Assembly: GCA_016699085.1 (NCBI GenBank)
Contig: CP064958.1
Coordinates: 345,375-409,374 of the forward strand
DNA length: 64,000 bases
Origin: Candidatus Nomurabacteria bacterium
GTDB taxonomy: Bacteria > Patescibacteriota > Minisyncoccia > Phycocordibacterales > UBA9973
Direction: 5' to 3'
Numbering within the stretch: the stretch's first letter is position 1; every line of letters begins with the position of its first letter. Of the stretch, positions 13,234-55,881 are shown piece by piece. Position numbers and translations under genes: made by a program. The notes below the pieces were generated by a model. The model saw only the letters and a program-made list of their open reading frames with translations. It was not told the DNA's origin and searched no databases.

Positions 13234-13824
13234 TTACTTGTCTGACTTAGGTTTGGTGATGATTTCGTCTACGATGCCGTACTTGAGTGCTTCTTCGGCG
13301 CTCATGAAGAAATCACGTTCGACATCTTTTTCGATTTGTGCAAGTTTCTGACCAGTATTTTTTGCCATGATTTGATTGAGCTGATGCCGTGATTTGATGA
13401 TGTGCTTAGCAGAGATCTCAATATCGGTTGCTTGGCCTTCAGCGCCGCCGCTCGGCTGGTGAATCATGATCTCAGAGTTAGGAAGTGCGAAGCGTTTGCC
13501 TTTGGCACCACCAGAAAGGAGAAATGCTCCCATTGATGCAGCCATGCCAACACAAATCGTTGAAATATCAGGTTTGACGAAATTCATCGTGTCATAGATT
13601 GCAAGACCTGAAGAAATCACACCACCAGGAGAGTTGATATAGAGACTAATATCACGCTTGGGATCTTCATTGGCGAGGAAGATGAGTTGCGCGATGACGA
13701 TGTTTGCAACATGATCATCAATGACGCCGCCTAAGAAAATAATGCGCTCGCGAAGCAGTCTGGAGTAAATATCGTAGGCTCGTTCGCCGAATTGTGATTT
13801 TTCAATAACAGTAGGAATCAACAT
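13234..13824 (-). CDS. clpP: ATP-dependent Clp protease proteolytic subunit
   Basis: [34 protein letters not shown] ... [11 protein letters not shown] ... IMIHQPSGG: canonical ClpP with Ser-His-Asp context. Confidence 0.95.
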
Positions 13825-13875
13825 GGTTAAATTAATTATTTAGTAATTGGTCATATAAAACGTCGTACTATATCG

Positions 13876-13930
13876 TCTCGCCCCGTACGAAGTTTTGTGT
13901 GCGTCTGAGATGAAGCTTTCGTTCTGGGGT
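13876..13930 (+). repeat. bipartite GC element, copy 1 (TCTCGCCCCGTACGAA-32 nt-GTTCTGGGGT)
   Basis: 13-16-nt GC box identical to copy 3 and to the reverse complement of copy 2; same spacing to a GGGGT box. Confidence 0.7.
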
Positions 13931-14101
13931 AACTGTTGGGATTAACATATAGGTAAAAGGTAAGGTTAAACTTGATTAGTAACAGATTAAGTATAGCAAA
14001 ATAGGGCATTCTGAGGGACTTGACAGAATAGGGTATAGTATGCTATGATATAGGCACAAATTGTTCCCGTTTAATTTCATAAAAACAAAAAAAACATAAA
14101 G

Positions 14102-14800
14102 ATGAAGAAAATCTTTTCCTTTTTGCCACTGGCAACCCTTACTTTATTTGTCATTTCAATGACCTCTTGCTGGGACGGTGATCGTCAGGCAAAGAGGGAA
14201 ATGCTTTTCGAAAACCAACCGGATGCAGCTTTTGTAGATAATTACATTGCGACAATTAAATTTTCTTCCCCGATTGCTGTGGATCCTTTGACTGTCCGGG
14301 TCCAAGACGCTGCAGGCAAAACAATTTTTGTCCGCTGCATTGACAAGGCTAAGCTTACTGATATCCTAAATCTTGCATTAGATGGCAAGATTCATGGTTT
14401 TGAAGTCTGGGGAAGAGTTCGACCTACGTCATACCATACGAAGTATTTAGGCAAAAAAATATTTGTATGGGAAGTTGTAGGAGAGGTATGGACCACAGAA
14501 GATAAAGATTATCACATGGTTGCCGACTCGGTTAGAGGATACAATTTGAGGGATATTGAAAAAAACTCTCGCGAAAAATCCAAAGTCCGGATAATACAGG
14601 CGCCGTTACCGAGCAGGGTTACAAAACCTTGTGATGGATCCAATGTGGAATTTAGTTCTACATTCCCTGATGGAACGAAAATTGAATTTAAGTCGGTACA
14701 GGGAGTCGTGCAGCAAACCAAAGCACTTCCCAGTATGCCAACTGTTCCAAAGTCAGATTCAATCCCGCGGCCTGGTGCGACAGTGCCCGTGCCGCAATGA
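14102..14800 (+). CDS. putative lipoprotein/secreted hypothetical protein
   Basis: signal peptide with lipobox-like LFVISMTSC; Pro-rich C-terminus; followed by terminator 14822-14852. Confidence 0.55.
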   Translation: MKKIFSFLPLATLTLFVISMTSCWDGDRQAKREMLFENQPDAAFVDNYIATIKFSSPIAVDPLTVRVQDAAGKTIFVRCIDKAKLTDILNLALDGKIHGFEVWGRVRPTSYHTKYLGKKIFVWEVVGEVWTTEDKDYHMVADSVRGYNLRDIEKNSREKSKVRIIQAPLPSRVTKPCDGSNVEFSSTFPDGTKIEFKSVQGVVQQTKALPSMPTVPKSDSIPRPGATVPVPQ

Positions 14801-14821
14801 TGTTTCGCCTATGCGAAGCAA

Positions 14822-14852
14822 AACACCCTCAATTATAGAGGGTGTTTTTTAT
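14822..14852 (+). terminator. rho-independent terminator
   Basis: AACACCCTC-aattata-GAGGGTGTT + TTTTTTATT. Confidence 0.75.
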
Positions 14853-14907
14853 TACATAAAGTAATCAGTGGCAAGTATTTTACTTCTGTTCTTCAAGAAA
14901 CTTAAAC

Positions 14908-14958
14908 ACCCCAAACAAAATAACGGTTAATAAATAACCTATTTCGTACGGGGCGAGA
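14908..14958 (-). repeat. bipartite GC element, copy 2 (inverted orientation)
   Basis: reverse complement reads TCTCGCCCCGTACGAA-29 nt-GTTTGGGGT; lies 42 nt 3' of the tig stop codon in tig sense orientation. Confidence 0.7.
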
Positions 14959-14999
14959 AGTGATCGATGTTACTTATTCAACTTAGCAATTTCAGAGGT

Positions 15000-16088
15000 T
15001 TATTTGAGCCCTTCTAGGAAACTAAACACTTTTTCATTCCTAAGAATATTCTCAACATAGAGCTCTGCTTGGAGCGGATCAGCATCTTTGTACATATCCA
15101 TAAGTTTCTTTACTTCGGTATCAATGTTTTCTTTTGGTACGGTAATATTTTCGACTTGGGCGATTTTGTTGAGTGTAAGCTCAAGTATTGCTCGGCGCTC
15201 GGCATCTTTTCTCCATTCCTCACGAAGAGATTCCTTGGTCTTCTTTACGTGCTTCAAGTAGTCGTCCATATTGAGTCCCATATTTGAAATGTCGCTCTCC
15301 ATGCGGTGGAACATTTTATTGAGTTCAGCTTCAATTAAAATTTCAGGTACATCGACTTTGACACCATCGATGATTTTCTCAACTGCTGCAATGCGTTTCT
15401 TCTCTTCTTCTTTATTCTTTTTCTCGAGTAGGATATTTTCTCGAATTTTTTCCTTGAGCTCATCAGCTGTTTTAAAATTACCAACAGCTTGGGCGAAAGT
15501 ATCATCAAACGGCGGCAATGCTTCCTCCGTTAATTCTGGATGATTGTGCTCATGCGATTCGCTAGTGTCGTCTTTGTGAAGTTCTTGATGGGCGCGCATT
15601 TTCCTGAATTCAAGTATTGCATCGTCGACTTCCTTCTCGGTTACTTCTGCCTTCACTTCTTTGCTAAAAGCCTCCGTAGCTATCTTTTTATAGTCGGGTA
15701 AGGTGAGCTCAGGCAGTACGGCGGTGCGGATTTTGAAACCGAGGGGATTATCTTTGGCAAGCTTGGTAATCATGATTTCAGGCCGGCCGATAGCGTCGAT
15801 CTTCTCACTCTCCAGGATTTCTGGATAGTGTTTTGCCATGGCAAGTTCTGCCATTTCCTCAAGGATCGGCATGTCGCCGATTTGTTTGCGGAATACATCA
15901 ACAGGGACTTTGCCTTTACGAAAGCCAGGCATTTCGAAATTTGCGAGCAAATGCTCGATAGCTTTGGTTTCGAATGTCTTGAATTCTGCTTCAGGTATTT
16001 CACCTTCGATCTCAATTCTGCTTTTTTCTAGTTTAGTGATTTTTGGTTGCATGGATTCGAGTGTACTTGGGAGAAGTGTTTTTGTCAA
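15000..16088 (-). CDS. tig: trigger factor
   Basis: N-terminal ribosome-binding signature PGFRKGKVP, PPIase and C-terminal chaperone arms; 362 aa. Confidence 0.85.
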   Translation of the reverse strand: MTKTLLPSTLESMQPKITKLEKSRIEIEGEIPEAEFKTFETKAIEHLLANFEMPGFRKGKVPVDVFRKQIGDMPILEEMAELAMAKHYPEILESEKIDAIGRPEIMITKLAKDNPLGFKIRTAVLPELTLPDYKKIATEAFSKEVKAEVTEKEVDDAILEFRKMRAHQELHKDDTSESHEHNHPELTEEALPPFDDTFAQAVGNFKTADELKEKIRENILLEKKNKEEEKKRIAAVEKIIDGVKVDVPEILIEAELNKMFHRMESDISNMGLNMDDYLKHVKKTKESLREEWRKDAERRAILELTLNKIAQVENITVPKENIDTEVKKLMDMYKDADPLQAELYVENILRNEKVFSFLEGLK

Positions 16089-24144: not shown

Positions 24145-25926
24145 TTGTCTGTTATACTTGGTATAAGAATGCAAATCAAAGAAGAACAATTAAAAACTTT
24201 TATTGCAGAGGCAGGATTAGTTTCAAAAACAGATTTAACTGCAGCAATAAAAGAAGCCAAAGAGAAAGAGCAATCAATCGGCGACATACTCTTGTCCGCT
24301 GGTAAGATTACCGACTCTGATCTTAAACGTATGCAAGCCTACATATTGGGCATACCGTTTATTTCACTGCTTGGGGAAAAAATCCCATTTGAAATACTTT
24401 CGCTTATTCCTGAACCTATTGCTCGCAATCATAATATTATCGCGTATCGCAAGCGCGCTGATGAACTCGAAGTCGCAATGCTCGATATTGAAGACCTATC
24501 GGTGATTGACTTCATTAAGAAAAAAGTTGAACTTAAGATTTCTCCACGTTTGACTGATACTGAGTCTCTCAAACACGCACTCTCACAGTATAAGAAAAGT
24601 CTCAAGGCGGATTTTGATGACATCATCAAAAAAGAATCTGTCTCACTTAAGATGATCGCCGAAGAAAATGGTGAGGCAGGACTTTCAGGTAAAGAACTCA
24701 AAGCTATGGCTGATGATCTACCAGTCGTTAAGATTGTCGATACACTTATATCCCATGCAATTCTCCAAAATACATCTGATATCCATATTGAGCCTGAGGA
24801 AAATGAATTGCTTGTTCGCTACCGTATCGATGGCATACTCCATGATGCGATGGTACTACCAAAAGATGCAGCAGCTGGTATTACAGCGCGTATTAAAGTA
24901 CTTTCGAATTTAAAGCTTGATGAGAAACGATTGCCGCAGGATGGGCGCTTCAAAATCACGACTGAAGCCGGGGATCAGGTATCGTTTCGTGTCTCAACAT
25001 TGCCTACATATTATGGCGAGAAAACAGTTATCAGAATTTTGAAGGAAAATGCCAAAGGTTTTACCTTGGAAGGTTTGGGCTTCCACGGCGAAGCGATGGA
25101 GCGCATTCATGAAGGCATGAAGCAAAAAACAGGGATGATTTTAGCGACCGGACCGACTGGATCAGGTAAGACCACAACACTCTATACTGTGCTTGATATT
25201 TTAAACACTCCAGATGTTAATATTTCAACAGTTGAAGATCCAATTGAATATCAAATGCAGCGAATCAATCAAACGCAGGTAAAATCAGAAATTGGACTCA
25301 CGTTTGCTAATGGACTTCGCACGCTCTTGCGACAAGACCCAGATATTATTATGGTCGGTGAGATTCGTGATACCGAAACTGCATCGCTTGCAATTAACGC
25401 CGCACTGACCGGTCACTTGGTGCTCTCAACGATCCACACCAATTCTGCAGCAGGTGCTATTCCCCGAATGATAGACATGGGTGCGGAGTCATTTTTGATT
25501 GTCTCGACAGTGAAAACTATTATTGGCCAACGCCTTGTGAGAAAATTAACCAATACGAAAGAAAAATATTTTTTGAATCCGACTGAAATAGCTGCGCTAG
25601 CTAAAATCATAGATTTGGATCGGATGCTTACCATGATTAAGACTGAGAATATTGTGCCACAAGATGCGACCTGGGAGACGATACCGTTCTATAAAGCTAT
25701 ACCTTCTGAAGAATCTGAATCAGGTTATAGTGGCCGACTTGGTATTCATGAAGTGCTAAAAGTGACGACAAGTATTAAGGAACTCATACTAAAAGGTGCC
25801 TCAGAAGATGTTATTTCAGAACAAGCCAAGAAAGAAGGTATGATGACGATGCTTGAAGATGGTTTATATATGGCAGTGTCTGGATTAACCACAACAGAGG
25901 AAGTGCTACGAGTCGTGTCTGAATAG
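24145..25926 (+). CDS. pilB: type IV pilus assembly ATPase PilB (GspE family)
   Basis: N-terminal GspII_E domain, Walker A GPTGSGKTT, Asp box and His box; 593 aa. Confidence 0.92.
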   Translation: MSVILGIRMQIKEEQLKTFIAEAGLVSKTDLTAAIKEAKEKEQSIGDILLSAGKITDSDLKRMQAYILGIPFISLLGEKIPFEILSLIPEPIARNHNIIAYRKRADELEVAMLDIEDLSVIDFIKKKVELKISPRLTDTESLKHALSQYKKSLKADFDDIIKKESVSLKMIAEENGEAGLSGKELKAMADDLPVVKIVDTLISHAILQNTSDIHIEPEENELLVRYRIDGILHDAMVLPKDAAAGITARIKVLSNLKLDEKRLPQDGRFKITTEAGDQVSFRVSTLPTYYGEKTVIRILKENAKGFTLEGLGFHGEAMERIHEGMKQKTGMILATGPTGSGKTTTLYTVLDILNTPDVNISTVEDPIEYQMQRINQTQVKSEIGLTFANGLRTLLRQDPDIIMVGEIRDTETASLAINAALTGHLVLSTIHTNSAAGAIPRMIDMGAESFLIVSTVKTIIGQRLVRKLTNTKEKYFLNPTEIAALAKIIDLDRMLTMIKTENIVPQDATWETIPFYKAIPSEESESGYSGRLGIHEVLKVTTSIKELILKGASEDVISEQAKKEGMMTMLEDGLYMAVSGLTTTEEVLRVVSE

Positions 25927-25940
25927 GCAAAAAATATACT

Positions 25941-27158
25941 ATGCAATTTTCATACAAAGCAAAAAATAAAGAGGGGGTGCAGACTGACGGTGTTCTTGAG
26001 GCATCAGACAAATTTGCCGCAGCCAAAGCGTTACGTGCGCAAGGACTCATACCGGTCATGCTTACACTTACAAAAGTAAAGGCATTAGGTGGACTTTCCT
26101 TTCTGAGTGGATTATTTGGCGGCGTTAAACTTCACGAAAAAATAATTTTTACCAGAAATCTAAGCGGTATGCTTTCGGCTGGGCTGTCACTGTATCGGGC
26201 TTTATCAGTCTTGGAGAAGCAGACAATAAATGAGAAATTTAAGAAAATATTAAATATGCTTATCAAGGACATTGACCGGGGTGGCACACTGTCTGAAGGT
26301 ATGGGGAAATTTCCAAAAGTATTCTCTACGCTGTTTGTCTCTATGGTACGTGCTGGAGAGGAATCTGGAAGTATGCCACAGACATTGACCGAAGTTGGTG
26401 GCACACTTGAGAAGACCTATGCGCTCAATAAGAAAATAAAGGGCGCGCTCATGTATCCGTCTATTATCTTGATTGCGATTGTACTCATTGGTATTTTGAT
26501 GATGATATTTGTCGTACCAACACTCACGAATACATTTAAAGACTTAGATGTAGAATTACCGAAAAGTACACAGCTAGTTATATTTATTAGTGATTCGCTC
26601 TCACAGAGCCCTGTTATTACATTCCTTGTTCTCTTCACTTTTGCAGGGGGATTGTTTGGAATTTCAAGAATAAAAGGTCTTAAAAAATACACTGATTTTA
26701 TTGTTATTCGTATACCAGTTATCGGTGGCATTGTGCAAGAAGTAAATGCTGCCCGTACAGCTCGAACACTATCCTCACTTTTGAACGCAGGTGTTGATAT
26801 GACTAAAGCATTAACAATTACTGAAGAAGTGGTTCAGAACATGTATTACAAAGCTGTTATTACCAAGGCGATTGCGTCAGTACAAAAAGGTATCACACTC
26901 TCCTCAATATTTAAGGAAGCAGATCGGCTCTATCCAATCATGGTTGGAGAAATGATGGAAGTTGGAGAAGAAACTGGCAAATTATCAAGCATGCTTATGG
27001 ATATCGCCACCTTCTACGAAGGTGAGGTTGATACAAAAACAAAAGATCTATCAACTATTATTGAGCCGATTCTAATGATTTTCATTGGTGGTGCTGTCGG
27101 ATTTTTTGCGATATCAATGATTTCACCGATGTATTCCTTAATGGATAGTGTTTCATAA
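25941..27158 (+). CDS. pilC: type IV pilus inner-membrane platform protein PilC (GspF family)
   Basis: two T2SSF repeats, 405 aa; 14 nt after pilB. Confidence 0.9.
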   Translation: MQFSYKAKNKEGVQTDGVLEASDKFAAAKALRAQGLIPVMLTLTKVKALGGLSFLSGLFGGVKLHEKIIFTRNLSGMLSAGLSLYRALSVLEKQTINEKFKKILNMLIKDIDRGGTLSEGMGKFPKVFSTLFVSMVRAGEESGSMPQTLTEVGGTLEKTYALNKKIKGALMYPSIILIAIVLIGILMMIFVVPTLTNTFKDLDVELPKSTQLVIFISDSLSQSPVITFLVLFTFAGGLFGISRIKGLKKYTDFIVIRIPVIGGIVQEVNAARTARTLSSLLNAGVDMTKALTITEEVVQNMYYKAVITKAIASVQKGITLSSIFKEADRLYPIMVGEMMEVGEETGKLSSMLMDIATFYEGEVDTKTKDLSTIIEPILMIFIGGAVGFFAISMISPMYSLMDSVS

Positions 27159-28962
27159 TATGCAACGATATAAAACAAACAGATATCGTGGTATGACACT
27201 AATTGAGACGCTTGTTGCGATAGGATTTTTCATGGTTGTGTCTGTCGCATTGTATGAAGTGTATGTAAAAATTATAAAGACTACGACGATTTTAAATGCA
27301 CGTGTTGTTGCAGCGTCTCTAGCAAATGAAGAATTTGAAATTTTACGTAATATGCCATATGCAAGTGTCGGAACTCAAGGTGGCATTCCATCAGGTTCTG
27401 TCCCACATATCCAGACATTAACACGTGATGGTATTTCATTTGATGTGACAACAACAATTCGAAATATTGACGAAGCATTCGATGGCACCATCGGAGGCAC
27501 ACCCAATGATCTTTCTCCAGCTGATAATAAGCTAGTAACGATTGAGATTACTTGTGCAGTGTGTGAAAATTTTGTTCCACTCATGTATACAACCCACATC
27601 GCGCCAAAAGATTTGGAGACAGCTTCAACGAATGGGGCACTCATTATCAATGTTTTTGATGCAAATGGAGTAGCGCTGCCTGATGCCACAATCACCATTG
27701 ATAATCCAACCCTCGTTCCAGCTGTCCATATAAGCGATGTTAGTGGTGTGGATGGCACGCTTACTATTGTTGATGCACCGCCAGCAGTCGGTTCGTACCA
27801 TATTGTCGTAACGAAAGACGGCTATTCTACAGACCAGTCATATCCGCCGAATGCAGTCGATAATCCAAATCCTACAACCCCCGATGCAACAGTTGTTGTG
27901 CAGCAAATTAGTCAGGTAAGCTTTAGTATTGATAAAACGAGCACGCTAACGACTACGACAACGAGCGATACGTGCGTTGCAAAGCCTGGGGTAACGTATG
28001 AACTTTCAGGATCAAAAATAATTGGGACAACGCCTGATGTGTTGAAATATACATCTACAGAAACTACTGACAGTTCTGGGGTAAAGACTATCACAGGCCT
28101 TGAATGGGACACCTATACGATTGCACTCGCCGACTCAACCTATGATCTTATTGGTACTAATCCATTGCTGTCGCTCGGCCTCTTGCCTGATTCACTGCAA
28201 AACATGCAGCTCATTGTCGCACCAAAGAACCCAAATCGATTACTTGTTGTTGTCAGGGATCAATCAACCGGGTTGCCTATTACAGATGCTCATGTTGAAG
28301 TGGCAACTGAAGATTTGTCATATGATGTCATTCAAAGAACTGGTGAAGGATTTTTGACGCAGACTGATTGGTCGGGTGGTAGTGGACAGGAAGATTTTAT
28401 TGATCCGACTCTTTACTATAGTTCAGACGGTAATATCGATACGACGAGTCCAACGGGTGAATTAAAATTGCGAAATGTATTTGGTACCTACGTAACGAGT
28501 GGATATCTAACCTCCTCAACATTCGATACGAATGGAGAAAATAATTTCCATCAGATTTATTGGTCACCTACATCACAACCCGCACAAACTGGCAGTGATA
28601 GCATTAAGTTTCAAGTGGCTACCAACAATGATAATACAACTTGGGATTTTAGAGGTCTTGATGGTACAGACGCTACCTACTATACTACCGAGGATAATGC
28701 ATTGAGTGCACTTCTCAATGGTAATCGATATTTTCGTTATCGAGTGTTTCTCGCCACAGCTGATACAGCTGTCACGCCGTCAATATCGGATATTTCATTT
28801 ACGTTTACAACCTCATGTACCCCACCTGGGCAAGTTTCATTCAGTGGACTTTCGCCCGGAGAGTATACGGTGTCTGTTATCAAAGCTGGATACCAGACGT
28901 ATTCTGGATCAGTAACTATTAATTCAAATTGGCAGAAACTTGAAGTTGCTATAACGCCATAA
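27148..28962 (+). CDS. large prepilin-type N-terminal domain protein (pilin-like, 604 aa)
   Basis: class III signal RG|MTLIETLVAIGFFMVV; overlaps the pilC stop by 11 nt; Thr/Ser-rich beta-rich body. Confidence 0.65.
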   Translation: MFHNMQRYKTNRYRGMTLIETLVAIGFFMVVSVALYEVYVKIIKTTTILNARVVAASLANEEFEILRNMPYASVGTQGGIPSGSVPHIQTLTRDGISFDVTTTIRNIDEAFDGTIGGTPNDLSPADNKLVTIEITCAVCENFVPLMYTTHIAPKDLETASTNGALIINVFDANGVALPDATITIDNPTLVPAVHISDVSGVDGTLTIVDAPPAVGSYHIVVTKDGYSTDQSYPPNAVDNPNPTTPDATVVVQQISQVSFSIDKTSTLTTTTTSDTCVAKPGVTYELSGSKIIGTTPDVLKYTSTETTDSSGVKTITGLEWDTYTIALADSTYDLIGTNPLLSLGLLPDSLQNMQLIVAPKNPNRLLVVVRDQSTGLPITDAHVEVATEDLSYDVIQRTGEGFLTQTDWSGGSGQEDFIDPTLYYSSDGNIDTTSPTGELKLRNVFGTYVTSGYLTSSTFDTNGENNFHQIYWSPTSQPAQTGSDSIKFQVATNNDNTTWDFRGLDGTDATYYTTEDNALSALLNGNRYFRYRVFLATADTAVTPSISDISFTFTTSCTPPGQVSFSGLSPGEYTVSVIKAGYQTYSGSVTINSNWQKLEVAITP

Positions 28963-28966
28963 TTTT

Positions 28967-29563
28967 ATGTCAAAAGGATTTACACTTATTGAATTGCTTG
29001 TAACCCTTGCTGTCATCGGTATTGTGGTTACGATCGTGGGAAGATTTAGTGGTGATACATTTTATTTTTCAAATATCTTTTCACATTCACTCAATACTTC
29101 TGATCAAGCGCGCCGTATTCTAAGGCCGATGGCGGATGAAATCAGATCAATATCGCCATCATCAGCTGGGGCATATCCAATTGAGCAAGCTGCATCAAAT
29201 GCATTTATTTTTTTCTCTGATATAGATAATGATGGACTCAAGGAACGTGTGCGATACTATGTAAGTGGTACACTACTGAAGAAAGGTGTCACTAAACCAA
29301 CAGGTAATAATTTTACATATGATCCTAGCTCGGAAGTTATTATTGATGTTGTTGAGGGTGTCCAAAACGGTGCGAGTCCAGTTTTTGAATATTATGATAC
29401 TAACTATGATGGCACAACGAACCCATTAGTGCAGCCAGTTATCATTTCAACTATACGGCTAGTGAAGGTCACCTTTATTATTGATGAAGATGTCAATCGA
29501 ATGCCGGGTCCGATGACAGTAATGACTCAAGTCTCAATGAGAAATCTTAAAGATAATTTATGA
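28967..29563 (+). CDS. prepilin-type pseudopilin
   Basis: MSKG|FTLIELLVTLAVIGIVV canonical N-terminal methylation motif. Confidence 0.7.
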   Translation: MSKGFTLIELLVTLAVIGIVVTIVGRFSGDTFYFSNIFSHSLNTSDQARRILRPMADEIRSISPSSAGAYPIEQAASNAFIFFSDIDNDGLKERVRYYVSGTLLKKGVTKPTGNNFTYDPSSEVIIDVVEGVQNGASPVFEYYDTNYDGTTNPLVQPVIISTIRLVKVTFIIDEDVNRMPGPMTVMTQVSMRNLKDNL

Positions 29564-31050
29564 GAATAAAAGGATTTATACTTCTTAATACTATTGTTTT
29601 CTCAGCAATCGCGATTACGCTTGTTGTGGCATTTGTTGGCTGGGCAGGTGCTAGTTTAAAATCAGCAGCAAATCTGGTGAAGCGTGAGCAAGCTTTTGCA
29701 ATTGCAGAAGCGGGTATTGATTATTATCGATGGCATTTAGCGCATGCAACGAATGACTATCAGGATGGTACAGGTCAGCCCGGTCCGTACGTTCACGCAT
29801 TTAATGATAAAGATGGCAATCAAATCGGAACTTTTACACTTACGATTACACCGCCGCCTATTGGCTCGACACTTGTGATTATTGAGTCAAAAGGTACGCT
29901 TATCTCTGATCCAAATATATCGCGCACAGTTGTTACACACCTCGCCATACCTTCCTGGGCACGGTTTGCACTCGTGACTAATGCTGATACGCGCTTTATT
30001 GAAGGTGCTGAATTTTTTGGTCCAGTACATTCAAATGGGGGGATACGATTTGATGCTTTGGCACATAACCTAGTGACCAGCGGCAAAGCATCGTATATTG
30101 ATACGAGTCATCCTGGAACTACTCAAGAATTTGGTGTTCATACTCATGTAAAACCTCCTCCACAAAATGGTATTTCCGGGGGTAACTATGTAGCCGCTGA
30201 GGCCCCACCATCTGTTATGGAAAATCGACCTGATGTTTTTATTGCCGGCAGACAATTTCCAGTACCGCAAGTAGATTTTGTAGGTATTACTAGCAATTTA
30301 GCAGCATTTAAGACAGATGCACAAACAAGTGGGTATTATTTTGCCGCATCTGGTGCTCTGGGATACCACATTGTTCTAAAAACCGACGATACATTTGATA
30401 TATATAGGGTAAACAGCTTAGCTCCAGTCCCACGCAATTCATGTAAAAATATATCGAACCAAAACGGCTGGGGAACCTGGAGTATCAACCCATCCGCTGG
30501 TGGTCAGACGCTTATTGGCAATTTCCCTAATCCAATGAATGGGCTCATCTTTACAGAAGATGATGTTTGGGTTGACGGTACAGTCAACAGTGCTCGCCTT
30601 ACTATTGCAGCAGCAAAATTTCCTGACAACCCCTCAACAAGAAAAAATATAATTATAAATCACAGTATTAATTATACTAACTTTGATGGGCAGGATGTTG
30701 TTGGGCTTATTGCACAGAATAATGCCATTATCGGGCTTTTTGCTGATGAAGAACTTGTTATCAATGCTGCACTTATTGCACAAAATGGGAATTTGATCCG
30801 ATATAATTATCCTGGCCCTGGTAATGGTAATGGCTCAGCACAATGCTCACCGAATGATGTACTTACCTCATTTAATTCATACGGTATGATTGGTAGCAAT
30901 TTACAGGGAGTACTAAGCTATAGTAATGATGCAAGTGGATTTTTATCTCGTACCTATACGTACGATGCTAATTTGCTCTATAGTCCGCCACCATCATTTC
31001 CGAGGACATCAGATAAATATTCAACAATATTTTGGCAAGAGCTGCAGTAA
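29560..31050 (+). CDS. pilin-like/minor pilin hypothetical protein (496 aa)
   Basis: N-terminus MRIKGFILLNTIVFSAIAITLVVAF pilin-like hydrophobic helix; ATGA overlap with the previous gene. Confidence 0.5.
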   Translation: MRIKGFILLNTIVFSAIAITLVVAFVGWAGASLKSAANLVKREQAFAIAEAGIDYYRWHLAHATNDYQDGTGQPGPYVHAFNDKDGNQIGTFTLTITPPPIGSTLVIIESKGTLISDPNISRTVVTHLAIPSWARFALVTNADTRFIEGAEFFGPVHSNGGIRFDALAHNLVTSGKASYIDTSHPGTTQEFGVHTHVKPPPQNGISGGNYVAAEAPPSVMENRPDVFIAGRQFPVPQVDFVGITSNLAAFKTDAQTSGYYFAASGALGYHIVLKTDDTFDIYRVNSLAPVPRNSCKNISNQNGWGTWSINPSAGGQTLIGNFPNPMNGLIFTEDDVWVDGTVNSARLTIAAAKFPDNPSTRKNIIINHSINYTNFDGQDVVGLIAQNNAIIGLFADEELVINAALIAQNGNLIRYNYPGPGNGNGSAQCSPNDVLTSFNSYGMIGSNLQGVLSYSNDASGFLSRTYTYDANLLYSPPPSFPRTSDKYSTIFWQELQ

Positions 31051-39937: not shown

Positions 39938-40109
39938 ATATGATGAATTGCCTATAGGGCTGGTCTTAATCGGTTAATAATAATTATTATAATATATTTT
40001 CCAGAAAATGCAATAGGTGACGAGTAGATGTTCTAATAGCTTCATGTTTGTATATTTTCCAAATAGAAAAACAAAAAATTTTTATTTTGCATATGCTACA
40101 ATCTTCTCT

Positions 40110-41765
40110 ATGAAAACTACAGATCTAATTGATCTTCTACTAGAAAAACGCGGTATTACTGGTGTGCAAGATAAAGAAATGTTTCTGCATCCTTCATATG
40201 AGCGCGGTATGCATGACCCCATGCGAATGAAAAATATGGAACGTGCAGTGGTACGGCTCTATGAAGCTATTGAAGCAAAACAAAAAATTGTTATTTATGC
40301 TGACTATGACTGTGATGGTATTCCGGGTGCGGTAATGATGCATGATCTCCTAACCAAAATCGGTTACACGAATTTTTCTATTTATATTCCAGACCGACAA
40401 GATGAAGGATATGGACTCCATATGGATGCGATTAAACAATTTATTATCGAGAAAGTTGATTTACTAATTACGATCGATTTAGGGACGACCGCTGTCGCTG
40501 AAGTTGCCGAAGCTCAAGCAAATGGTATCGATGTCATCATTACAGACCATCACCTGCCGCACGGCGATCTGCCGAAAGCATTTGCCCTGCTTAATCCAAA
40601 GCAGGAAGGCGATACATATCCATATCCTATGCTTGCAGGTTCTGGAGTTATTTTTAAGTATATCCAAGGGTTTCTTTTTAAATATAGAGAATATTACAAG
40701 ATTCCAAATGGTTTTGAGAAATGGCTGCTTGATATGGCTGGACTTGCAACACTCGCTGATATGGTGCCCTTAACTGGGGAAAATCGAGTGATTGCATATT
40801 ACGGACTTATGGTTTTACGCAAATCAATGCGCCCAGGACTACGTGCACTTTTTTCACATCTTAAAATTGACCAGCGACATCTGGCTGAAGATGATATTAC
40901 ATTTATGATTACCCCTAGGTTGAATGCCGCATCTCGTATGGATTCTCCAATGCGAGCATTTGAACTTCTATCCGAAACTGATAAAACTAAAGGCAACTTG
41001 CTTGCATTACATCTTTCGAAAATTAATGATGAGCGTAAAGTGTTAGTTGCTCAAATTATGAAAGATGCCTATAAACATTTGGAAAAGCGCGATCTAGGTC
41101 AAGTTATTGTGATAGGGAATCCTTCCTGGCGTATTGGTGTGCTTGGTCTTGTTGCGGGCAAGCTCTGTGAAGTATACAAGCGACCAGTCTTTGTCTGGGG
41201 AAGAGAAAGTCATGACGGGTCAACGACACTCAAAGGCTCATGTCGAAGCGATGGTAGCATAAGCGTTGTAGAACTCATGCAGGCAAAAGAGTCTCTCTTC
41301 CTTCATTTTGGTGGACACGAAGCATCAGGTGGATTTTCTCTGGAAGAAGCAGGGATTCATTTTCTTGAAGAACATTTAACAAAAAGCTATCTCTCACTTG
41401 CGAAAGATACCTCAGAATCGAACGTGGTCTATGATGCGCAATTGGCTGTATCAGATATAACATCCAAAATGCATACAACACTCGCAGAGCTTGCGCCGTT
41501 TGGCTGTGAAAACCGTAAGCCTACGTTCTTGTTTTCTGGAGTAATAGTAGAGCGTGTACGGCAATTTGGTAAAGAAAAAAATCATTTAGAACTACACGTT
41601 AGTGATGGTAAACGTAGTATAAAAGCTATAGCTTTTTTTACAACAGCAGATACTTTTGATGTAAGTATTACAGAAGGTTCGTGTATTGATCTGGTGGCGA
41701 CTGTTGAACTCTCGTATTTTGGTGGTCAGTCAGAATTACGCTTACGAATAGTTACTATCCAATAA
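40110..41765 (+). CDS. recJ: single-stranded-DNA-specific exonuclease RecJ
   Basis: DHH motifs (IYADYDCDGIPG, ITDHH), DHHA1 domain (GGHEASGGFS); start at 40110 (MKTTDLIDLL), track ORF is 5'-extended. Confidence 0.85.
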   Translation: MKTTDLIDLLLEKRGITGVQDKEMFLHPSYERGMHDPMRMKNMERAVVRLYEAIEAKQKIVIYADYDCDGIPGAVMMHDLLTKIGYTNFSIYIPDRQDEGYGLHMDAIKQFIIEKVDLLITIDLGTTAVAEVAEAQANGIDVIITDHHLPHGDLPKAFALLNPKQEGDTYPYPMLAGSGVIFKYIQGFLFKYREYYKIPNGFEKWLLDMAGLATLADMVPLTGENRVIAYYGLMVLRKSMRPGLRALFSHLKIDQRHLAEDDITFMITPRLNAASRMDSPMRAFELLSETDKTKGNLLALHLSKINDERKVLVAQIMKDAYKHLEKRDLGQVIVIGNPSWRIGVLGLVAGKLCEVYKRPVFVWGRESHDGSTTLKGSCRSDGSISVVELMQAKESLFLHFGGHEASGGFSLEEAGIHFLEEHLTKSYLSLAKDTSESNVVYDAQLAVSDITSKMHTTLAELAPFGCENRKPTFLFSGVIVERVRQFGKEKNHLELHVSDGKRSIKAIAFFTTADTFDVSITEGSCIDLVATVELSYFGGQSELRLRIVTIQ

Positions 41766-50990: not shown

Positions 50991-53141
50991 ATGGAACGAG
51001 ATTATCCGTTAGAGAAAGTAAGAAATTTTGGTATTATCGCCCACATTGATGCGGGTAAAACAACGACAACTGAGCGTGTCCTTTACTATACCGGTGTGTC
51101 ACACAAGATCGGCGAGGTGCATGACGGCGAAACAACGACTGACTGGATGGAACAAGAGCGCGAGCGTGGTATCACGATCACGTCTGCTGCGGTGACTTGT
51201 TTCTGGACGCCAACGTATGCATTGACTGACAAAAATAAAAAGCATCGTTTCAATATTATTGATACCCCAGGTCACATCGACTTTACGGTTGAAGTAAAGC
51301 GCTCCCTCCGTGTGCTCGATGGAGCTGTCGTTGTGTTCGATGGTGTTGCTGGTGTTGAACCACAATCAGAAACCAACTGGCGTTATGCTGATGAGGCAAA
51401 CGTCCCTCGAATCTGTTTCATCAACAAACTTGACCGAACCGGTGCATCATTTGAACATTCCTATGCAACAATCCTTGATCGTCTTTCCAAAAAAGCTGTT
51501 CGTGCACAAATTCCAATAGGACTTGAGGAGAAACATGAAGGCGTGATTGATCTCCTTCGTATGAAGGCCTACTACTTCGAAGGTGAGATGGGAAATAAAG
51601 TTATCGAAAAAGATATTCCTGAAGAATATAAAGCTGATGCGGAGAAATACCATAGTGAGCTTATCGAGAAAATCGTCGAGCAAGATGATGCAGTCATGAA
51701 TGAATATCTCGAAGGCAAAATTCCTGATTTTGATATGCTTAAGAAATTGCTCAGAAAAGGCGTGATTGCCAACAATGTATTTCCAGTCTTTGCTGGAAGT
51801 GCACTCAAGAACAAAGGCGTGCAACTCGTTCTCGATGCTGTTGTTGACTATCTCCCAGCACCTACCGATATTCCGCCGATCCCAGGTATCAATCCTGATA
51901 CTGATGAAGTGACGGAACGCAAAGCGTCTGACGCGGAACCATTTGCAGCGCTCGCATTTAAAGTTGCTACTGATCCATTCGTCGGACAGATTATTTTCTT
52001 CCGTGTGTACTCAGGTACACTTGAAGCCGGCTCATATGTCTATAACCCACGTACTCGCAACAAAGAGCGCATCGGCCGAATTCTTCGTATGCATGCCAAC
52101 GATCGAGAAGAAGTGAAGAAAGTCTATGCCGGAGAAATTGCGGCAGCTGTTGGACTCAAAGATACGATTACGTCAGACACGCTCTGTGATCAAGAAAAAC
52201 CTGTTGAGCTTAACCGTATCGTCTTCCCTGAACCAGTTATTTCGCTACGAGTAGAACCAAAGACCAAAGCTGACCAAGAGAAAATGGGTATGGCACTTAA
52301 CCGTCTTGCCCAAGAAGATCCGACATTCCGCGTATCTACTGATCAAGAAACAGGAGAAACGATTATTGCTGGCATGGGAGAACTACACCTTGAAATCATC
52401 GTTGATCGTATGAAGCGCGAATTTGCTGTGGAAACCAATGTTGGCAAGCCACAAGTTGCCTACCGAGAAACAATTACCTCAGAAGCTTCAGCCGAAGGCA
52501 AGTACATCAAGCAGTCTGGCGGCCGCGGTAACTATGGTCACGTCAAAATCAAGATCAAGCCAATGGATATGTCACTTACCAAAGAAGACATTGAAGATTT
52601 ACCAAAGAATACCAAGCGTGAACCACATTTCGAATTCATCAACAATATCAAAGGTGGCGCGATTCCGCAGGAATATATTCCACCAGTTGAGAAAGGCTTC
52701 CGTGAAGGACTTGATCGGGGAATTCTTGCAGGGTTCAAAATGGTAGATGTTTCTGTTGATCTCTGGGATGGTAGTTTCCATGAAGTTGACTCGAACGAAA
52801 TGGCCTTCAAAATCGCAGCATCGATGGCTATCCAAGACGCAGCCAAAGCTGCTAAGCCTGTCATCCTTGAACCTATGATGAATGTTGAAGTCGTGACCCC
52901 TGAGAAATTCATGGGTGATGTAACTGGAAGTCTTTCTGCAAAACGTGGACTTATCGAAGGCATGGAAGATCGAGGTATGAATAAAGTTGTTCGTGCTATC
53001 GTGCCGCTATCTGAAATGTTCGGCTACATGACCAATCTCCGTTCGATGACTGAAGGTCGGGCAGGATTTACTATGGAATTCATCCGGTACGATATCGTAC
53101 CTGCTAACGTTGCGGAAACAATTATTGCTGCAAGGAAGTAA
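50991..53141 (+). CDS. fusA: elongation factor G
   Basis: G-domain [24 protein letters not shown]; 716 aa full length. Confidence 0.97.
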
Positions 53142-53168
53142 AAGCGTACGCAAGTTTATATAACAACA

Positions 53169-53223
53169 TCTCGCCCCGTACTAAACAATCTGCGCATTCG
53201 GCAGGTTGTTTTGGTTCTGGGGT
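53169..53223 (+). repeat. bipartite GC element, copy 3 (TCTCGCCCCGTAC-32 nt-GTTCTGGGGT)
   Basis: 27 nt after the fusA stop; same boxes and spacing as copies 1 and 2. Confidence 0.7.
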
Positions 53224-53266
53224 GCCACAAAACGTCGCTGAGACGATCATTGCCGCAAGGAAATAA
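53219..53266 (+). pseudogene. decayed duplicate of the fusA 3' terminus
   Basis: translates [15 protein letters not shown]-stop versus the fusA end [15 protein letters not shown]-stop. Confidence 0.65.
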
Positions 53267-53280
53267 AATTTACATAAACA

Positions 53281-53310
53281 AAAATCTCCCCAAACAGGGG
53301 AGATTTTTGT
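53281..53310 (+). terminator. rho-independent terminator
   Basis: AAAATCTCCCC-aaaca-GGGGAGATTTTT. Confidence 0.8.
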
Positions 53311-53359
53311 TTATTGACATTTATGATAATTTGTGATAATCTAAGCAAAACTTAAAAAT

Positions 53360-54133
53360 ATGAAAAATAAAAGACTTCCTTTTATCATCTTGGCACTGGC
53401 TGCCATTGCTACGATTATTTTTTTCGCTGTCTCCTGCTCCAAGGAGAAAAGTATTGTTGATTTGGTGAACGATATTGAACCGGTTCATCGGTTAGATAAT
53501 CGTTATACATCTATCCTGGATACGTTATCAACAATGACAGACAAAGGCAAATTGGAATATATTAACAAACAGTGGCCAACACTCGGAAATGATGTTGTTT
53601 ATTGGGTAAGAAACTATTCTGATGATATGCCTGCATATTCTCGAATTTCAAAAACTGCAAGAATTGATTCTGTGGTCTTACTTTTCGGTAGTGGAAAAGA
53701 TGCACAAGGCAACGATGCAAATGGGAATATGCATGATGGCGGAATATTTGATAATGATCTAATTGCCGCAATTTATGTTCACGGAGAAAAGGATCCTCAC
53801 AAATATTTCGTACAATGCACCAATGGTATGAGCTATCCGGTAGAAACATCAAATGTTCGGAGAATTGGTCGCATAAAATATGGAAGTGAATTTACCATCG
53901 GAGAGGGAGAAGGATTCTGTCACTATATATCCTTTGATGTTGGGATTGACTTAGGACGTGAGTGCGGAATTAAATTTTATGAAGGGAGAATTCAAACCCC
54001 AGAGCATGAAATATCATATGAACGTGCATGGGAATTGAGAGATCAAACTGATGATATACAGGTTACGGCTGGATTGAAAAAAGGAGATTATTTTAACCTT
54101 ACTACCAGGAAGTGCAAACTGGTTCCCAGATAA
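53360..54133 (+). CDS. putative lipoprotein, hypothetical
   Basis: lipoprotein signal MKNKRLPFIILALAAIATIIFFAVSC. Confidence 0.45.
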   Translation: MKNKRLPFIILALAAIATIIFFAVSCSKEKSIVDLVNDIEPVHRLDNRYTSILDTLSTMTDKGKLEYINKQWPTLGNDVVYWVRNYSDDMPAYSRISKTARIDSVVLLFGSGKDAQGNDANGNMHDGGIFDNDLIAAIYVHGEKDPHKYFVQCTNGMSYPVETSNVRRIGRIKYGSEFTIGEGEGFCHYISFDVGIDLGRECGIKFYEGRIQTPEHEISYERAWELRDQTDDIQVTAGLKKGDYFNLTTRKCKLVPR

Positions 54134-54440: not shown

Positions 54441-54459
54441 TATCTAAACAGGCAAGTAC

Positions 54460-54675
54460 ATGGAAAGTTCCAATAAAAAATACCATCAAGCATATGCAAT
54501 CGCTAGAGCATTGTATACGTTAATATATGTAGGAAGCCGTAAAATGTCTCCAGAAGTTTATATATGTATCGTTCAGGGTGTCAAAATGTCCCAAGGTACT
54601 CTTGCTGAAGAGTCGGAGTTCCCCGGTGTTGTAGAATTTTCTCATGAACTAAATTTAGCTTTGCAAAAAAAATAA
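54460..54675 (+). CDS. small hypothetical protein
   Basis: 71-aa ORF; terminator hairpin AAGAACCCCATGGGGTTCTT at 54817-54838 downstream. Confidence 0.3.
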   Translation: MESSNKKYHQAYAIARALYTLIYVGSRKMSPEVYICIVQGVKMSQGTLAEESEFPGVVEFSHELNLALQKK

Positions 54676-54887
54676 TTGGAAGGATATCTATCTCACCTAC
54701 ATGTTGCAAACTTTAGAAGGAGCCCCGGCAATCATCACCGAAGCGCAAATCAAGAGTTTAGTTATTCTTTTAAGAAATGTGAGGAATATACTAGAGAAAA
54801 AAATGTTGTCTTAGTTAAGAACCCCATGGGGTTCTTTTTATTGCAAAATACAATATTTATGTTATAATAAAATAAACTTTATTTGAC

Positions 54888-55289
54888 ATGCTAAAAACAA
54901 AACAAAACAAAGAGGCAGATGTTGCGGTGCTCAATCTATTTAAGGCACTGCGAAGACTGGTAAAGGGCGAGACTAAGAAATTATCAAAAGCAAACTACAA
55001 GAAACTTACTTCTGTAGTACGTTTGATGAATACCAAACCCACCGAGAATAATCTTGAGGTGGTGAAACAATCTTTCCTGAAGAGTATCAAAGGTGATCCT
55101 GACTATATTGGCTGCAATGAAACGTATTATTTGATTGAGACGTATACCCCAAAAGAATCGCTGGATTCAATTGTGAAGGAATTGCTCAATATATGTGGAT
55201 CTAAAGATTTCAAAGCCTCTGTGCTTTTACTTTGGAGCCAAACCATGCGCGATAAAGCGCTTGAAGAAAAACGAAAACTGACAAAATAA
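54888..55289 (+). CDS. hypothetical protein (first of a three-gene small-ORF operon)
   Basis: 133 aa, Lys-rich, no domain recognised. Confidence 0.4.
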   Translation: MLKTKQNKEADVAVLNLFKALRRLVKGETKKLSKANYKKLTSVVRLMNTKPTENNLEVVKQSFLKSIKGDPDYIGCNETYYLIETYTPKESLDSIVKELLNICGSKDFKASVLLLWSQTMRDKALEEKRKLTK

Positions 55290-55678: not shown

Positions 55679-55881
55679 TGCACAGATCCTTAGAACTTTC
55701 AAATGCAATGAGGGAAATTTTCCCTCAAGATTCTAAGAAAGATTTCTGGATTGAGTGTATACGAAGCAAACTCAGTCACCCACATATGAACAGTAATGCT
55801 CAAGAATGCACAGGTGATTTGCTTGTCGTGATGGAAAAAGTAAAAGATATTCTCCATCAGAGGCGAAAAGCATTTCTCTGA
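55654..55881 (+). CDS. small hypothetical protein
   Basis: 75 aa, overlaps the previous ORF by 25 nt; followed by terminator AATACCCC-ttctttct-GGGGGTATT (55888-55912). Confidence 0.3.
   Translation: MSTETHEVMHRSLELSNAMREIFPQDSKKDFWIECIRSKLSHPHMNSNAQECTGDLLVVMEKVKDILHQRRKAFL

Follow-up and report, generated by a model that had tools for sequence, protein, structure and literature searches.

Integrative elements and islands that target gene ends, such as the 3′ ends of tRNA and tmRNA genes, the 5′ end of dusA or the 3′ end of guaA, restore the gene that they enter with a terminus of their own. Beyond the insertion, the native terminus persists as a diverged direct repeat. Many hosts are entered at one and the same conserved site, and the replacement end records a past in other hosts. 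Homing endonuclease genes, group I introns and inteins, which are abundant in the rRNA and tRNA genes of the candidate phyla radiation (CPR, Patescibacteria), occupy fixed conserved sites, occur as empty and filled alleles in relatives, spread horizontally and may co-convert the upstream flank. These traits are seen or presumed in a small module that is present three times, at fusA, tig and clpP, in a stretch of 64,000 nucleotides from a Candidatus Nomurabacteria bacterium (contig CP064958.1, positions 345,375 to 409,374; hereafter the window). Each copy comprises a version of the gene end (A) with a non-coding tail, a GC-rich hairpin (E) and a second version of the same gene end (B). We consider it probable that each of the three hairpins forms the end of its own, independently inserted copy of a small mobile module of Patescibacteria, which is non-autonomous, homes horizontally and is moved in trans.

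Three modules at fusA, tig and clpP

The sequence TCTCGCCCCGTAC is found at exactly three places in the window, 13876-13888 (+), 14946-14958 (-) and 53169-53181 (+), and the bipartite pattern CGCCCCGTAC-N20-45-TGGGGT matches these same places only, with 0.00 matches in 100 dinucleotide shuffles. The three GC-rich bipartite copies reported in the original prediction, which was made by reading the sequence alone, are therefore confirmed, with none expected by chance. Its perfect 16-nt inverted pair formed by copies 1 and 2 (TCTCGCCCCGTACGAA) and its spacings from the stop codon to the motif (27 nt for fusA, approximately 41 nt for tig) are equally borne out. Each copy folds as a single long hairpin with the base CGCCCC(G)/(U)GGGGUG and an upper stem that differs from copy to copy. 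Minimum free energies (MFE) are -22.0 kcal/mol for copy 1 at clpP, -25.6 kcal/mol (z -5.5) for copy 2 at tig and -28.1 kcal/mol (z -4.0) for copy 3 at fusA, with covariance-model scores of 61.7, 52.6 and 72.7 bits, respectively. An exhaustive covariance-model search returned no further E in the 64 kb; a near-match with two mismatches at 54960 lacks both the 3′ box and a covariance-model match and was discarded as chance. The only Rfam matches in the window at the gathering threshold are tRNAs, so that no family accounts for E, and a permissive search of the three E loci produced nothing beyond sub-threshold, terminator-like noise. A terminator scan, which does detect the native fusA terminator 3′ of B (53285-53311), found neither a T-run after E nor an intrinsic terminator at any E.

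On the E strand, all three copies have the same layout of gene body, A, tail, E and B, in which B starts at the T of GGGGT and A starts about 71 nt upstream of TCTCG. The fusA duplicate spans 45 nt (33/45 identical), keeps the reading frame and has a stop codon of its own; its peptide retains 13 of 14 residues, and of the 12 bases that differ, 10 are synonymous changes at third positions. A duplicated fusA C-terminus after copy 3 had been noticed before and is real, but it is not decayed, as had been supposed, since 14 codons and the stop are intact and in frame. Copies 1 and 2 also carry gene-end duplicates, which had been overlooked. At tig, 21 of 30 nt are identical, with equal length and stop; at clpP, the duplicate covers the first six codons (15/19 nt identical), and all four differences are synonymous. 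For each duplicate, no more than 4 among 200,000 segments drawn at random from the window are as similar, a count that includes draws of the copies themselves.

An empty site exists for the fusA module. In a relative with 99% EF-G amino-acid identity and 91.4% fusA nucleotide identity, recovered as four contigs from four samples, EF-G ends in B-type sequence and the locus lacks exactly 125 nt, 53097-53221, with a 1-2-nt GT ambiguity. The native fusA end of this relative differs from B at 3 of 45 positions and from A at 12 of 45; A is thus about 27% diverged from the native end and B about 7%, compared with 8.6% for fusA as a whole, and the downstream terminator and promoter are identical in the two genomes. 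Because the native end of the empty site matches B and not A, A is foreign, and module 3 is a precise 125-nt insertion. The last 300 nt of fusA before the junction contain 43 mismatches between window and relative (about 23 expected) and the other 1806 nt contain 138, an excess suggestive of co-conversion of the flank upstream. The left junction lies within a perfect 16-nt palindrome, GGTACGATATCGTACC (53086-53101); the relative has CGGTATGATATCGTGCC instead, so the palindrome arose through the imported sequence.

A close relative, L080 (approximately 92% identical), has both the tig and the clpP module. Its B fragments differ from those of the window by three synonymous changes in 47 nt, with one synonymous difference in tig B, and the sequence just past them is strongly diverged, with indels; beyond the tig B stop codon this divergence is heavy. 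At clpP, 17 of 18 coding nucleotides of B match the native clpP start of an element-free relative, L132. A native bidirectional terminator lies beyond the tig B fragment, at approximately 14820-14851.

The lipoprotein gene between clpP and tig had been proposed to be the cargo of a unit bounded by copies 1 and 2 as terminal inverted repeats, a proposal that does not survive comparison with L132 (tig 62% identical). Here ppa, tig, a 222-aa lipoprotein-like gene on the opposite strand and clpP occur in the same order with no element at either site, and the native tig terminator lies directly 3′ of tig; the 222-aa product is 31% identical to the window lipoprotein over 90 residues. This order without elements indicates that the lipoprotein gene is resident and that the two hairpins are independent insertions. 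Each is explained alone, by insertion at the clpP 5′ end or the tig 3′ end together with its own gene-end duplicate.

Table 1. Parts of the three modules in the window (positions count from the first letter of the window; a slash marks the junction)
Feature	Position	Strand	Description
Module 1 part A	13806..13824	-	Working clpP codons 1-6, ATG TTG ATT CCT ACT GTT; Pfam CLP_protease; gene on minus strand, module on plus strand
Module 1 A-tail	13825..13875	+	51 nt; now the immediate 5′ leader of clpP
Module 1 hairpin E	13876..13930	+	Antisense to clpP
Module 1 part B	13930..13948	-	Displaced native clpP start, ATG TTA ATC CCA ACA GTT; like A, encodes MLIPTV
Module 2 part A	15000..15029	-	Working tig terminus, VFSFLEGLK-stop; open reading frame matches Pfam Trigger_N/Trigger_C
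Module 2 A-tail	14959..14999	-	41 nt, ends ATCACT; about 80% conserved in the orthologous module of L080
Module 2 hairpin E	14908..14958	-	Identified by covariance model and MFE
Module 2 part B	14880..14909	-	Displaced tig terminus, VFKFLEEQK-stop, near the family consensus ...FLE(E/N)QK
Module 3 part A	53097..53141	+	Foreign replacement fusA terminus, 14 codons and stop, now the working gene end; 12/45 nt differ from the empty-site relative
Module 3 A-tail	53142..53168	+	27-nt non-coding spacer imported with A; missing from the empty site (L122/L124); contains no terminator
Module 3 hairpin E	53169..53223	+	TCTCGCCCCGTAC, variable stem-loop, then GTTCTGGGG/T; final T common to the target
Module 3 part B	53222..53266	+	Displaced native fusA terminus; 42/45 nt equal the working fusA end of L122, downstream sequence identical

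Several features of the surroundings stand apart from the modules. The lipoprotein gene (14102-14800) is hypervariable: promoter, signal-peptide start and terminator are conserved relative to L080 and the body is unalignable, which is a separate phenomenon. Upstream, about 95 nt of intergenic DNA (approximately 13985-14080) has a single mismatch to L080, although coding DNA differs by about 8%, and includes a near-consensus promoter for the lipoprotein gene, TTGACA-18-TATGAT (14020-14049). The gene after fusA (53360-54133) encodes a 257-aa putative lipoprotein with no Pfam match; compared with L122 (5246-5986), its 5′ end and flanks are conserved and its body is about 40-50% identical. Further along, the window has about 360 nt more than L122 at 54442-54801 and about 240 nt less near 55686. 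A tRNA cluster at 1797-2664, with tRNA-Pro(TGG), tRNA-Arg(CCG) and tRNA-Gly(TCC), is unrelated to the modules.

A family of modules at conserved genes

One scan of a genome collection and one of metagenomes, with the conserved boxes in the search pattern, yielded approximately 45 non-redundant further copies, all on AT-rich contigs of Patescibacteria (Nomura-, Pacei-, Zambryski- and Saccharibacteria). The original prediction had named confinement of the motif to its three sites, together with an unchanged gene order and a diverged motif in relatives, as grounds for abandoning it; instead, there are many copies, with presence/absence polymorphism at exact boundaries. Matches in the GC-rich DNA of other organisms lack the hairpin and are no true copies. 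A viral origin was likewise discarded, as the matches on viral contigs are all chance occurrences in GC-rich or coding DNA, for example one inside a portal-like open reading frame (ORF) (L001).

The base of E is conserved as (ACCACT)TCTCGCCCCGTAC ... GT(A/T)(C/T)TGGGG, the hairpin is 38-58 nt long, and its basal boxes are invariant in an alignment of 40 copies. Across the alignment, 93% of cells are paired, compared with 73% in shuffles (0/500 as high) and 33-56% in slid controls. All six predicted apical pairs show compensatory changes, and divergent copies found by the covariance model add C-G to T-A covariation in the basal stem. All 40 aligned copies have the same two G.U pairs, whose bases were fixed by the search pattern and which make the hairpin structure strand-specific.

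An A/B repeat is present in almost every copy. Regardless of the length of E, 68-75 nt separate TCTCG from the upstream position that is homologous to the junction T. When as much as 12 kb of sequence 5′ of each E was searched for a partner of B, which would have revealed longer, autonomous versions, only the spacing of about 71 nt was found; one apparent exception, L111, proved to be a stacked array. In all of the approximately 33 loci with enough flank, the gene body lies 5′ of E. E therefore reads sense at the 3′ end of a gene and antisense at a 5′ end, and about two-thirds of the members are at 5′ ends. The bases before the junction T are not conserved among targets. TTGCAA, considered as a second conserved A-tail motif or a promoter, occurs in only 8 of 37 tails and is a feature of a sub-lineage. 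A hairpin in the target was rejected as a landmark: stability is enriched 50-80 nt past the junction, but native terminators account for this at 3′-end targets, and most 5′-end targets have no such hairpin, and a few of the hairpins are relic elements (L023, L033, L054-like). Short E-base-like hairpins are also seen 3′ of B, at about +55 in L023, +95 in L054 and +63 at fusA in the window (53285-53301), with the sequences CGCCCCCGTA...GGGGGT, GCCCCGTAC...GGGC and TCTCCCC...GGGGAGA; they suggest that some native 'terminators' may be older, eroded E copies.

The target sites number 26 in 25 genes, fusA being used at both ends. Pfam supports 23 of the targets, which include the ribosomal proteins S11, S12, S19 and L2, EF-Ts, EF-G, LepA, NusG, AlaRS, TsaD, ClpP, trigger factor, an HtpX-like M48 protease, UvrB, exonuclease III (Xth), FolD, transketolase, an NYN protein, a ComF-like phosphoribosyltransferase, a tyrosine recombinase, a PilB-like ATPase and a response regulator. 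The uvrA and P-type ATPase targets were assigned by reading terminal sequences, and trxB by the C-terminal sequence in L111. The same junction is reused across genomes: the fusA 3′ site in Nomurabacteria and Saccharibacteria, and the clpP 5′ site in five genomes. At L042 (504-3142), a stretch of 3 kb holds three modules, one each at the 5′ end of xth, the 3′ end of a tyrosine-recombinase gene and the 5′ end of an NYN-domain gene; the base of the module at the recombinase gene is degenerate, with a compensated C-G to T-A change.

The differences between A and B lie mostly at third codon positions, and both look like genuine coding ends. Over 36 loci they fall at codon positions 1, 2 and 3 in the ratio 47/42/154 (chi-square p about 3e-23), and 122 of the changed codons are synonymous and 56 non-synonymous. 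The pattern is that of two orthologous coding sequences and not of a functional copy beside a neutrally decaying one.

Modules can also be found stacked. At htpX in a Saccharibacterium (L033), two hairpins lie between three intact C-termini (THPPIQDRIEALLG..., THPPIEERIRALMG..., THPPMEERIQALIG...), and at the trxB-like gene of L111, two hairpins accompany the termini YLYLNTR-stop, YLWLNAK-stop and YLYLNAR-stop. In one metagenome-assembled genome (MAG), the hairpin interiors at four different targets are 85% alike, as they are across genomes within a subtype; for the same target in different genomes, the figure is only 44-50%. Two clpP loci, L079 and L118, have a common A-tail and unrelated hairpin tops. 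Hairpin and gene-end part therefore assort independently. One set of metagenome contigs, L107 compared with L054, L063 and L072, shares the left flank and an almost identical hairpin and has an entirely different right flank, reflecting either recombination at the hairpin or a repeat-seeded assembly chimera.

Proposed mechanism and rival explanations

In the reading that we favour, the module of about 125 nt would consist of approximately 71 nt of A and tail, followed by the 38-58-nt hairpin E. A would bring, from a different lineage, a working version of the start or the end of a conserved gene, 6-20 codons long, and insertion would occur at a T within the terminal codons of the ortholog. Once in place, A would serve as the working gene end, and the native B would be pushed past the hairpin, abutting GGGG/T, so that an essential gene stays intact. 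From there the module would be passed horizontally between genomes, each time entering the same site of the same gene much as a homing element does, and modules could stack at a site. By analogy with integron attC sites and with IS200/IS605 or REP (repetitive extragenic palindromic) hairpins, a trans-encoded protein may recognise the folded top-strand hairpin and carry out strand transfer or cutting at GGGG/T. Gene-end homology, carried or adjacent, may align the module with its target, and the left side would probably be resolved through homologous recombination. Homing, a trans-acting enzyme and a step on a single-stranded DNA hairpin are thus the presumed parts of this scheme. The two borders behave differently: the right junction is fixed at GGGG/T, and the left switch from recipient-like to donor-like sequence varies: at fusA it precedes A, and at L019, L106 and L092/L109 it falls inside A. 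It would suit the DNA-uptake lifestyle assumed for such transfer that the window encodes a type IV pilus-like cluster (24145-31050; PilB-like ATPase, PilC-like T2SSF protein and N-methyl pseudopilin) and a RecJ gene (40017-41765).

It is important to point out what this scheme does not accommodate with ease. A foreign origin of A is directly demonstrated at one locus only, fusA. No transposase, integrase, HUH protein, reverse transcriptase or guided nuclease is present among the 26 window ORFs scanned, which include pilus genes, glycolysis, RecJ, RNase H and surface proteins. The invariance of the boxes is partly a matter of ascertainment, as they belonged to the search pattern. The scheme offers no explanation for the length of about 71 nt, nor does it account for the first making of a module for a new gene. 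Finally, the mosaic loci L019, L106 and L092/L109, in which A equals B near the junction and diverges further out, are also compatible with a rare founding event followed by ordinary homologous recombination or gene conversion.

A more specific version, which we regard as possible but unlikely, is that the module is a nucleic-acid-guided homing device. E would be the handle for a protein, and the abutting B or the carried A would act as a guide that pairs with the orthologous empty site, for instance on incoming single-stranded DNA during natural transformation, with strand transfer at GGGG/T. The synonymously 'recoded' A would both repair the gene and shield the filled site from re-targeting. 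If true, guidance would explain the absolute polarity, the need for conserved sequence 3′ of E and the divergence between A and B.

Dedicated mobility might be dispensed with altogether if the loci were scars of homologous or illegitimate recombination between species at gene ends, following natural transformation, with E as a structural passenger of the 3′ flank, such as a hot spot of uptake or recombination or a terminator that has eroded. The excess of mismatches upstream of the fusA junction resembles a recombination tract, the A/B identities are mosaic, the pilus and RecJ functions of the window suit DNA uptake, and the native fusA terminator (ATCTCCCC...GGGGAGAT) sits at the would-be place of E and resembles its base. 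We nonetheless find this account rather improbable, because random homology-facilitated illegitimate recombination predicts none of the following: a right junction at GGGG/T without exception, a 68-75-nt geometry repeated at 26 unrelated target sites, stacking at one junction, and occupation of the same fusA site in Saccharibacteria and Nomurabacteria. Nor does it predict the absolute polarity, since a symmetric, purely passive process would give both orientations.

About as improbable is a transposon that consists of the hairpin only, in which E (about 55 nt) moves, staggered cuts approximately 71 bp apart duplicate the target, and A and B, identical at first, later diverge by mutation and recombination with foreign alleles. 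The duplication does cover the whole of the approximately 71 nt, tails included, at L032, L033, L041 and L020, the coding parts of A and B are 100% identical at L027, L042 and L118, and different targets have hairpin subtypes in common. The fusA locus, however, is difficult to reconcile with this, given the divergence of A from the native end relative to B and to fusA overall, and neutral decay of B would produce a third-position bias of at most about 1.7:1, far from the 154 against 47 and 42 counted. At L019, moreover, the coding part is 39/41 identical and the adjoining tail only about half identical, and a symmetric long target duplication does not predict one polarity at all of the approximately 33 loci. 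To our knowledge, no transposase makes duplications of about 70 bp.

A role of E as an RNA acting in cis on the host genes, for instance as a stabiliser of the 3′-untranslated region (3′-UTR), a processing site or a terminator, with incidental duplications, is very unlikely. The strong covariation of the hairpin, the two invariant G.U pairs (with bases set by the search pattern), the T-loop-like apical GCAUUCG of many copies and the location of E in the sense 3′-UTR of fusA and tig speak for a role in RNA. Against it, E lies antisense ahead of the start codon in about two-thirds of the target genes, is followed by no U-run, matches no Rfam family and is missing in close relatives with otherwise the same genes, and the foreign gene ends are left unexplained. 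The earlier suggestion of a 3′-UTR RNA element of highly expressed genes falls on the same antisense majority at 5′ ends and the lack of a T-run after any copy. The composite or non-autonomous transposon with a lipoprotein cargo can scarcely be credited, for although a perfect 16-nt inverted pair surrounds a gene whose body is non-homologous between window and L080 within conserved flanks, the element-free order of L132 contradicts it, the lipoprotein promoter and terminator shared with L080 lie inside the pair, each copy has its own outward-facing gene-end duplicate, and copy 3 and the approximately 45 others are solitary.

If confirmed, the trans-mobilised, homing module would add a new class to the known selfish DNA, one that inhabits some of the smallest bacterial genomes and tolerates insertion in essential universal genes by carrying a spare, foreign gene end, and it would document frequent DNA exchange between CPR lineages. 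The modules leave silent 'fossil' gene ends and fragments resembling upstream ORFs, which annotation pipelines miss, put a strong hairpin into the 5′ leaders of ribosomal-protein and chaperone genes, and can seed chimeras in metagenome assemblies. The hairpin also offers a starting point in the hunt for an unknown recombinase or nuclease. The underlying logic, in which one end is defined by structure and the target by homology, scarless for the host gene, is an aim of genome engineers; the hypothesis is testable, as some Saccharibacteria are now transformable. Should the guided variant prove true, the module would represent a new category, a class of programmable, capture-by-copy mobile elements.

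Comparison with known mobile elements

The gene-end-targeting integrative elements provide a close parallel. Direct border repeats with a gene terminus are present, and the inner copy restores the gene. Unlike these elements, the module is about 125 nt long, encodes nothing and has a structured hairpin as one end; it hits at least 25 protein genes at 5′ or 3′ ends, stacks and has no linked integrase. Neither an encoded integrase nor cargo was found, the 125-nt insertion having no ORF and no longer version occurring within 12 kb upstream. Homing elements are matched by the fixed site in a conserved gene and the empty alleles in relatives. In contrast to them, the 125-nt insertion encodes no protein and hence no endonuclease, and gene function is kept by duplication and not by removal; the antisense orientation at 5′ ends, moreover, argues against an RNA mechanism.

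The hairpin itself is reminiscent of integron attC sites, which are likewise folded, strand-specific hairpins with conserved basal boxes and an interior of variable sequence and length; cassettes, too, end in G with the next unit beginning with T, and stack in arrays. The boxes nevertheless differ, with CGCCCCGTAC / GTAYTGGGGT(G) at the base in 40/40 aligned copies and no R″ RYYYAAC or R′ GTTRRRY box. The modules are scattered at housekeeping genes without an attI/intI platform, as solitary units or two-unit stacks with no adjacent integrase except where a tyrosine-recombinase gene is itself the target, and their content, unlike that of cassettes, is a copy of the target.

The original prediction of a REP- or MITE-like element (miniature inverted-repeat transposable element) or a recombinase target holds in the broad sense that the hairpin is repeated and mobile and probably a target of recombination or a nuclease, but not in the defining features of REPs and MITEs. 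Palindrome-associated transposable elements (PATEs) of IS200/IS605 and the REP/BIME (bacterial interspersed mosaic element) sequences mobilised by REP-associated tyrosine transposases (RAYTs), both relying on HUH Y1 enzymes and single-stranded DNA hairpins, are also short, non-autonomous, hairpin-defined and strand-specific repeats, presumably moved in trans. PATEs have sub-terminal hairpins at both ends and insert 3′ of a conserved tetra- or pentanucleotide of the empty site. The module differs from these elements in its single hairpin per unit, its approximately 71-nt gene-end repeat, its low copy number and the lack of a conserved target tetranucleotide in the empty site; the conserved ACCACT lies within the inserted DNA and is missing from the empty site. 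Instead of a 20-40-nt palindrome with a GTAG/GTGG head, the 40 copies have the 5′ flank ACCACT-TCTCG, an internal GTAC and no GT(A/G)G head. REP/BIME sequences number in the hundreds per genome, outside genes, with a RAYT gene flanked by REPs. The window holds three copies in 64 kb and, among its 26 scanned ORFs, no HUH gene; no RAYT or TnpB partner was found in the window, the only region searched for one. As for MITEs, which have terminal inverted repeats and an identical target-site duplication of 2-10 bp, the 125-nt insertion shares only 1-2 nt, (G)T, with its target, and the flanking repeat is about 71 nt long and diverged. Diversity-generating retroelements, in which template and variable repeat differ at adenines of the template and a reverse-transcriptase gene is close by, are no better a match, as A/B differences involve all base types and are mostly synonymous, and no reverse transcriptase is encoded in the scanned window ORFs.

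The likeness to TnpB/IscB omega-RNA is one of layout only: a structured element end abuts the sequence of the empty target, and A is recoded relative to that sequence. Unlike the known scaffolds, E is far smaller, and the conserved target-adjacent motif at the junction is a T only; the scanned window ORFs contain no tnpB or iscB gene. Searches of the full-text literature, including one for the motif string, found no published description. Overall, the element is previously undescribed: it combines traits of known kinds of mobile DNA in an unprecedented architecture.

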